This document shows, piece after piece, positions 16,970 to 17,867 of a DNA stretch of 29,475 nt (within the stretch, counting starts at the first letter, position 1; each line of letters opens with the position of its first letter). The translations under genes were made by a program, and so were the position numbers. This DNA is from a virus. Its lineage: Duplodnaviria; Heunggongvirae; Uroviricota; Caudoviricetes. The stretch is taken from positions 1 to 29,475 of the IMG/VR virus record IMGVR_UViG_2778261167_000005; one strand, 5' to 3'. The notes below the pieces were generated by a model. The model saw only the letters and a list, made by a program, of their open reading frames with translations, did no database searches and had not been told where the DNA came from.

Positions 16970-17088
16970 TGACCAGAGAGCAGATAGCTAGATACCAGGC
17001 TGAAAGCGTCGCGAGAGCCAACCTAAAACCAATAGCTAAGCATTGTCAGAACCAGCAGACCAAACACCCAGAGAGGGCCACAGCGTGA
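16969..17088 (+). CDS. Possible tiny ORF (39 aa)
   Basis: Strong AGGGAGG RBS, ATG overlaps the preceding TGA; MTREQIARYQAESVARANLKPIAKHCQNQQTKHPERATA. Confidence 0.3.
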   Translation: MTREQIARYQAESVARANLKPIAKHCQNQQTKHPERATA

Positions 17089-17867
17089 ATCTTGAAAACA
17101 CAGTGAAATACCACTTCGCAAAATCCACACTGATTAGCGATTCTCCGCGCGCTACCGCCTCTGATTCACTGACAGGTACCGACATCATGGCTGCCATGGG
17201 CATGACTCAGGAACGCGCTGCCATGGGGTACAGTGCTTTCCTCGGCAAGATGGGCATAAGCAATAACGACCGGGAGCGGGCGATCGGACTGCTGGCAGAG
17301 TACGCGATGACCAAATGCGACAAGGTTGCCGCGCTGCGCAAGCTGGAAGCCGGAGTTAAGCCACTAGTTATGCACCAGTTGGCCACTTTCGCTTTTGAGG
17401 ACTATTCCCGCAGTGCTGCCAGCGTGAAGCAGTGCGATTGTTGTGGCGGTCAGGGCTTCATTGATGCTGATGTGTTTACCAATAAATTCCGTAAGCCAGA
17501 AGGGAAAATGACCGTGTCCGGGATGGTGAAGGTCAAAGAATCCGTCAAAGTGCTATGCAAAAAGTGTAATGGCTCTGGTGTGGTTAGTGCTTCATGCAGT
17601 GACTGCCATGGACGCGGCAAGGCAGTGAACCAGGCTCTTACTGAGAAACAGGGCATTCCTGTTCTGGCTGACTGTAAGCGCTGCGGAGGGCGTGGGTATG
17701 AACGACTTCCGTCGACTGAAGCCTATGCTGCTGTATGCCAAATTACTGACGCCATCAGTCTGGACACCTGGAAAAAGTCTGTTAAGCCATTCTACGACCA
17801 GTTGATCACGAAATTCGATATCGAAGAGGCTTGGGCAGAAAATCAACTGAAACAAATAACACGATAA
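17085..17867 (+). CDS. Late-gene antiterminator Q-like protein with four CxxCxGxG zinc-finger repeats
   Basis: Lies immediately upstream of the PR'-like promoter, terminator and lysis genes; CDCCGGQG, CKKCNGSG, CSDCHGRG, CKRCGGRG. Start uncertain (GTG 17085 coupled to the upstream stop; the ORF-track start 17043 is TTG). Confidence 0.55.
   Translation: MNLENTVKYHFAKSTLISDSPRATASDSLTGTDIMAAMGMTQERAAMGYSAFLGKMGISNNDRERAIGLLAEYAMTKCDKVAALRKLEAGVKPLVMHQLATFAFEDYSRSAASVKQCDCCGGQGFIDADVFTNKFRKPEGKMTVSGMVKVKESVKVLCKKCNGSGVVSASCSDCHGRGKAVNQALTEKQGIPVLADCKRCGGRGYERLPSTEAYAAVCQITDAISLDTWKKSVKPFYDQLITKFDIEEAWAENQLKQITR

Follow-up and report, generated by a model that had tools for sequence, protein, structure and literature searches.

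Is a protein that stands in the place of the late-gene antiterminator Q, and that carries four zinc-finger repeats of the type known from DnaJ, still an ordinary Q protein? The question is raised by a 29,475-nucleotide stretch of viral DNA (Caudoviricetes; IMG/VR record IMGVR_UViG_2778261167_000005, positions 1 to 29,475), which was analysed over its whole length and is called the window below. A sequence-only reading had pointed to an open reading frame (ORF) at 17085-17867 in the Q slot and to its repeats CDCCGGQG, CKKCNGSG, CSDCHGRG and CKRCGGRG, and had suggested a different antiterminator fold or a chimeric protein. The repeats proved to be exact in the translation and above chance by shuffling. 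However, we conclude that the product is very probably an ordinary late-gene antiterminator Q of the lambda family (PF03589), which belongs to a lambdoid prophage and has the common long form. The gene and its parts are the following.

17085..17867, plus strand: Q gene, lambda-family late-gene antiterminator of 260 residues with a GTG start (PF03589, phrog_127, 7ubm, AlphaFold2 model)
17424..17591, plus strand: insertion relative to lambda Q, residues 114-169, holding motifs 1 and 2 and a long beta-hairpin; predicted second zinc ribbon (alignment break at lambda 113/115, DSSP)
17433-17456, plus strand: motif 1, CDCCGGQG, residue 117 (pattern search of the translation)
17556-17579, plus strand: motif 2, CKKCNGSG, residue 158 (pattern search of the translation)
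17592..17702, plus strand: lambda-type arm, residues 170-206, with zinc ribbon, helix H3 and arm tip TEKQG (53% identity to the lambda arm, ungapped)
17595-17618, plus strand: motif 3, CSDCHGRG, residue 171 (equal to lambda Q C118-G125)
17673-17696, plus strand: motif 4, CKRCGGRG, residue 197 (equal to lambda Q C144-G151)

Membership in the lambda Q family is clear from several searches. In the Pfam scan the protein matched PF03589, 'Antitermination protein Q', with 153.8 bits against a cut-off of 26.7, and neither Q21 (PF06530) nor Q82 (PF06323) was matched at E<=1. Among the PHROGs, phrog_127 ('anti-termination protein Q-like') was matched over the whole length with E=9e-104. Among the PDB sequences, lambda Q 7ubm came first (E=9e-52), and its alignment falls into two collinear blocks, lambda residues 2-113 and 115-207, with 54 query residues unaligned between them. 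Identity to lambda Q is 39-58% by region, reaching 58% over the N-terminal residues 1-60. Close homologues, which are 87-93% identical, are named 'antitermination protein' in E. coli, Leclercia, Enterobacter and Citrobacter; PF00684 (DnaJ_CXXCXGXG) is already listed for them, and so is the accession PF27659.

The GTG at 17085 is favoured as the start codon because it aligns with lambda Q residue 1/2, because all close homologues have 260 residues and the N-terminus MNLEN, and because it has a ribosome-binding site, GAGAGGG, 7 nucleotides 5' of it and a GTGA overlap (17085-17088) with the stop of a small upstream ORF (16942-17088). A longer version of the ORF from TTG 17043 finds no support, since the lambda Q alignment and the N-termini of the homologues begin at the GTG. 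The overlap suggests translational coupling of the small ORF and Q. In E. coli prophages and mEp237 the gene matching this small ORF is labelled 'YlcG family protein'.

The pattern C..C.G.G occurs exactly four times in the 260 residues of this Q protein, and nowhere else when all six frames of the 29.5-kb window were searched. When the protein was shuffled 200,000 times, one match appeared in 456 shuffles, two in a single shuffle, and three or four in none. Lambda Q has two CxxCxGxG motifs of its own, CRDCHGTG at 118 and CGRCKGVG at 144. The contrast that had been drawn with a single lambda zinc finger is therefore true in that the motif number is doubled, and mistaken in that the lambda finger itself consists of two such motifs. 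In lambda Q the pair sits in the 'Q-lambda arm', a zinc ribbon of residues 114-152, and residues 61-113 and 153-207 make up a four-helix 'body' with a helix-turn-helix (HTH) (Yin et al. 2022, PMC9388147). Because motifs 3 and 4 align to the two arm motifs of lambda Q, with C171, C174, C197 and C200 falling on C118, C121, C144 and C147, they correspond to the lambda zinc ribbon. All eight cysteines (C117, C120, C158 and C161 included) and four glycines are invariant in an alignment of 47 diverse homologues. Among 30 four-motif representatives, the distance from motif 1 to motif 2 ranges over 14-63 residues and that from motif 3 to motif 4 over 23-27, and motifs 2 and 3 are 13 residues apart in 30/30.

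The junction of body and arm carries an insertion of net 53 residues, in place of lambda P114-A116, and this insertion holds motifs 1 and 2. The AlphaFold2 model, built from an alignment of 47 sequences with identities as low as 27%, had a mean predicted local distance difference test score (pLDDT) of 86.4. Its top match in the PDB was 7ubn_Q, which shows lambda Q within the loading complex engaged with NusA, with a template modelling score (TM) of 0.79 normalised to lambda Q. Comparisons with 7ubn and 7ubm gave TM 0.79-0.84 under this normalisation, and all other lambda Q entries ranked next. In an arm-only model, the 46 lambda-homologous residues superposed on the lambda Q arm with a root-mean-square deviation (rmsd) of 1.5-1.9 Å.

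The two pairs of motifs form similar units. According to DSSP, unit A (motifs 1 and 2) has strands at 125-132 and 150-157 with a low-confidence tip between them, and unit B (motifs 3 and 4) has strands at 179-181 and 194-196 with a helix at 183-189 between them, as in lambda. Both have the layout CxxCxGxG-strand-connector-strand-CxxCxGxG, and hhalign matched unit A to unit B with 94% probability, laying motif 1 onto 3 and motif 2 onto 4. Across the family members, motifs 1 and 2 are either both present or both absent, and motifs 3 and 4 are always kept. From the shared layout, the hhalign match and the all-or-none occurrence of the first pair, we infer that the protein most likely has two tandem zinc ribbons, formed by motifs 1+2 and 3+4, both of which would be occupied by zinc. 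Since the two internal units resemble each other, the extra ribbon probably arose by duplication of the arm unit within Q.

Such a form is not peculiar to the window. When 1.84 billion cluster representatives were searched exhaustively with HMMER, 247 relatives were returned, and among 50 representatives of 190-300 residues four Cys-pair motifs were present in 28 and two, as in lambda, in 8. The long four-motif form is the family majority, and the Q proteins of lambda and P22 belong to a minority short form. The same repeat is thus found in most representatives and in the established Q proteins of phi80, HK225, mEp237, ST104, SfV and Gifsy-2, and its presence in established Q families had been named in advance as grounds for refuting the proposal of a different fold or a chimera. 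Named relatives compare with the Q protein of the window as follows.

HK225 Q ('late gene regulator Q'): 79% identity, long form
mEp237 Q: 76% identity, long form
Erwinia phage Eho59 Q: 62% identity, 3/4 motifs fitting the search pattern
ST104 gene 23: 54% identity, long form
phi80 gp17 (Q), 269 residues: 41% identity across the whole protein including the insert; motifs CDCCDGGG, CKPCNGKG, CRCHGKG and CDRCGGRG
SfV Q: 40% identity, long form
Gifsy-2 Q: 37% identity, long form

The four-motif form of Q is already known and routinely annotated. Its importance for discovery is little, as phi80 Q and many lambdoid phages of known sequence have it; phi80 Q is the second Q protein of this family to have been studied by experiment (Guo & Roberts 2004, as cited in PMC9388147). 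On the other hand, the solved Q structures are all of the short lambda form, and the majority long form is without a structural or functional description in the literature searched. A literature search for mention of a further zinc finger in Q, or of a DnaJ-like motif there, found nothing relevant, Guo & Roberts 2004 and Vorobiev 2014 being outside its coverage, and neither feature is discussed in the Gifsy-1 AntQ paper or the NusA-lambda Q paper. The motif can also mislead automated annotation. In MK422450.1 (Klebsiella phage ST13-OXA48phi12.4) a Q homologue is labelled 'molecular chaperone', probably a mis-annotation arising from the DnaJ-like CxxCxGxG.

The position of the gene agrees with this assignment. 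It had been described as lying directly before a PR'-like promoter and terminator and the lysis genes, and this context is confirmed, with NinG upstream, the promoter and terminator at 17893-17988, and the holin, lysozyme and Rz genes downstream. The control region consists of the following elements.

17893..17920, plus strand: PR'-like late promoter (assigned by position, from homology to PR' of lambda and P22 and to the pR' and Q site annotated in phi80)
17893-98, plus strand: -35 element TTTACT (alignment to lambda PR')
between the -35 and the extended -10, plus strand: 16-nucleotide spacer TTTCCCGAATCTGTGT, holding the presumed Q-binding element (homology)
17912-20, plus strand: extended -10 element TGT-TAATTT (alignment to lambda PR')
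17927..17940, plus strand: sigma-dependent pause element AACGAT, then GGGTTAAT (identical to lambda)
17952..17988, plus strand: tR'-like intrinsic terminator, an 11-bp stem and then TTTTGCTTT as the U-tract (terminator scan; fold z = -5.0)

The stretch AACGATGGGTTAAT at 17927-40, which comprises the sigma-dependent pause element and the bases following it, is identical to that of lambda. From the -10 element onward, 29/39 positions equal lambda, including 15 identical bases in a row; between the -10 and the pause element TGTCCC is found, against TGACTC in lambda. The pause element is conserved in HK225, mEp237, SfV, Gifsy-2 and P22 as well, and PR' is identical in HK225 and mEp237. In HK225 the counterpart of the hairpin at 17952-17988 is annotated as a terminator, and P22, ST104, SfV and Gifsy-2 likewise have their promoter, pause element and terminator in this compact arrangement. 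The presumed Q-binding site, TTCCCGA, has the same position in the spacer as the annotated Q site of phi80, TCGCGGA. Nucleotide homology to E. coli prophages spans 17086-17986, exactly Q, PR' and tR', and judged by this match the three appear to be one co-inherited module.

The mechanism can be proposed by homology with lambda Q. There, body and arm bind the Q-binding element; the tip of the arm touches region 4 of sigma, and the ribbon base touches the beta' zinc-binding domain (ZBD). With NusA, the N-terminus refolds to a nozzle at the RNA-exit channel so that terminator hairpins cannot form (PMC9388147). In the same way, the HTH body and zinc-ribbon arm of the window protein would bind the Q-binding element in the spacer of PR', while RNA polymerase is held at the sigma-dependent pause induced by AACGAT. 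Together with NusA, Q would next load onto the polymerase, and refolding of the first ~60 residues of Q would form a nozzle at the RNA-exit channel. Polymerase modified in this way is expected to pass the terminators at 17952-17988 and 18266-18297 into the lysis and morphogenesis genes, which is the antitermination activity we assume for this protein. In this process motifs 3 and 4 would serve as the lambda-type arm, and motifs 1 and 2 would close the base of the extra beta-hairpin at the body/arm junction.

The DnaJ resemblance on which the sequence-only reading was founded is genuine in part. PF00684 does match the protein, with 35.0 bits against a threshold of 32.7, but this marginal score covers only three motifs (profile positions 1-52/65), is far exceeded by that of PF03589, and is not accompanied by a match to the DnaJ fold. 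It is hardly credible, in our opinion, that the protein is a chimera or a different fold with an acquired DnaJ cysteine-rich domain, possibly with chaperone-like or DnaJ-like properties. It is collinear with lambda Q from end to end apart from the one insertion, and its predicted structure fits lambda Q best. Neither a J-domain nor a DnaJ C-terminal domain was matched in Pfam at E<=1, and the NCBIfam DnaJ models gave 10-25 bits against cut-offs of 338-619. Lambda Q holds the motif pair already and itself matches PF00684 weakly, with 23 bits; CxxCxGxG is therefore native to the Q family and was not imported, and the likeness of the internal units points to duplication within Q. In the DnaJ cysteine-rich domain the zinc centres are nested, motif 1 with 4 and 2 with 3. 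This topology was considered for the window protein and rejected as unlikely, because the four-motif region as a whole superposes poorly on DnaJ cysteine-rich domains (rmsd 9-10 Å) and units A and B resemble each other. One might also take the ORF for a prophage remnant, degenerate or silent, whose motifs are irrelevant, as the element is a prophage with integrase and repressor and the gene begins with GTG. This is very unlikely, since the ORF is intact and of full length with a good ribosome-binding site, has 87-93% identity to many intact 260-residue homologues, and keeps its functional motifs together with a cognate PR', pause element and terminator. Some points do weigh against an ordinary lambda-type Q with its own PR'. 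A consensus sigma-70 scan of 16900-18700 found no promoter, and the hexamers are weak, with 4/6 and 3/6 consensus matches; owing to the missing call, PR' was assigned from homology with lambda, P22, phi80 and HK225 and from the TG of the extended -10. The Q-binding element is presumed and placed by homology, and the pairing of the motifs as 1+2 and 3+4 comes from homology, secondary structure and the pattern of presence and absence.

A further question is what the extra ribbon does. It adjoins, at the junction that contacts RNA polymerase, the stretches that touch the beta' ZBD in lambda Q on both sides (lambda 110-112 and 117/122-126), and the contact residues are kept in the window protein (SAA 110-112 and HGRGK 175-179, the latter equal to lambda 122-126), as is E187 of the arm tip (lambda E134). 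Because of this neighbourhood, we suggest that the ribbon probably supplements or tunes the beta' ZBD contact, or it may merely be tolerated. It is also the least conserved and fastest-evolving stretch of Q. Across 120 homologues of at least 75% identity, residues 125-170 have an identity of 0.60-0.62 to the window protein, compared with 0.93 for residues 1-113 and 0.89 for 205-260, and an indel hotspot lies at the hairpin tip, past residue 145. The HK225 and mEp237 proteins are 89-98% identical to it in the body and 47-57% in the insert, with length changes. As these two phages have a nearly identical PR' module and divergent inserts, the hairpin tip is unlikely to read the Q-binding element, and the extra ribbon would seem to be an accessory module without a part in setting promoter specificity. 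It is possible, though we regard it as doubtful, that the ribbon alters Q loading, for example through a new contact (beta' ZBD, beta flap, NusA or upstream DNA), so that the long form follows a pathway unlike that of lambda. The exact site of the insertion between the two beta' ZBD contacts, the rigid and selected geometry implied by the invariant cysteines and the fixed spacing of motifs 2 and 3, and the predominance of the long form are in favour of this. However, lambda and P22 Q function without the extra ribbon, the layout of promoter, pause element and terminator is unchanged relative to short-form Q proteins, and the poorly conserved hairpin of 14-63 residues argues against a conserved interface at the tip. 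We think it unlikely that lambda Q is an atypical minimal member and the second ribbon a functional module changing or regulating the loading of Q onto RNA polymerase. If this were true, the long form would combine an invariant, rigid zinc scaffold with a hypervariable tip, and this tip could contact RNA polymerase, NusA or DNA, or could be a surface diversified under selection by host or competing-phage factors.

As an observation of its own, the hairpin (residues 125-170; 17457-17594) is a hotspot of substitutions and indels among Q proteins that are otherwise 90-98% identical and have one promoter module in common. Either diversifying selection or plain relaxed constraint could be the cause.

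The surrounding genes are consistent, as a whole, with a lambdoid prophage. DUF1367 and NinG are upstream of Q, and integrase, RecT, a RecE-like protein, a CI-like repressor and a portal protein are encoded elsewhere in the window. The earlier listing of the context was right in the genes it described, but between tR' and the holin gene it left out two elements, a 62-residue ORF and a second terminator. Because this terminator lies 3' of the 62-residue ORF, late transcription must cross two terminators to reach the lysis genes.

18061..18249, plus strand: 62-residue ORF, first gene 3' of tR' (phrog_1856, E=1e-37; no Pfam match)
18266..18297, plus strand: second intrinsic terminator, strong, before the lysis genes (18266-18289 and T-tract; terminator scan)
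18347..19651, plus strand: lysis cassette, beginning with the holin ORF 18347-18682, likely ATG 18404 (Pfam Phage_holin_2_3)
18654-19199, plus strand: lysozyme (Pfam Phage_lysozyme)
19136-19651, plus strand: Rz (Pfam Phage_lysis)
19383-19607, plus strand: Rz1, embedded in Rz (ORF list)

Some features farther away were observed in passing. Between Rz and the terminase and portal genes, a segment at ~19650-21250 has a low G+C content of 0.39-0.43, compared to 0.50-0.58 in its flanks, and holds a minus-strand ORF of 170 residues (19690-20202) that matched neither Pfam nor PHROG; the segment resembles a moron or inserted cargo. In the nin region, a cysteine-rich ORF of 148 residues (15748-16194) has the CxxC pairs CLFCG, CAEC and CPLC and matched phrog_10082 only, with no Pfam match. 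A RecE-like protein of 977 residues (3980-6913, minus strand), with an N-terminal Exonuc_VIII match and a PDDEXK-like DUF3799, adjoins RecT, and the two make up a Rac-type recombination module in a prophage that is otherwise lambda/P22-like.

Compared with known systems, the protein is nearest in plan to lambda Q (PDB 4MO1, 7UBJ-7UBN; PF03589). Both have an N-terminal nozzle-forming segment, a four-helix HTH body and a zinc-ribbon arm with equal spacing of its two CxxCxGxG motifs, and both genes occupy the same position, between the nin region and the lysis genes. The protein differs from lambda Q in the net 53-residue insertion (lambda 113-116), with two more motifs and a predicted second zinc site. 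At PR', the identical AACGATGGGTTAAT pause element and a terminator downstream are shared with lambda, whereas the sequence between -35 and -10 is unlike and implies a different Q-binding element; the terminator is ~25-60 nucleotides from the start, as in P22, compared to ~190 nucleotides in lambda. With the Q proteins of phi80, HK225, mEp237, ST104, SfV and Gifsy-2 it shares the four-motif long form and the insert start 'CDCCxGxGF..A.VFTNK', and in HK225 and mEp237 the PR', spacer, pause element and terminator are essentially identical to those of the window. These long-form proteins differ among themselves in the length and sequence of the hairpin, motif 3 is CxCxGxG in phi80 and Gifsy-2, and phi80 has another Q-binding element, TCGCGGA rather than TTCCCGA. 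The cysteine-rich domain of DnaJ/Hsp40 (PF00684; PDB 1EXK; BSD2) differs in its nested centres, whereas the evidence for the window protein points to tandem ribbons; the latter is also without a J-domain, a G/F region and a DnaJ C-terminal domain, and its biological role is another one.
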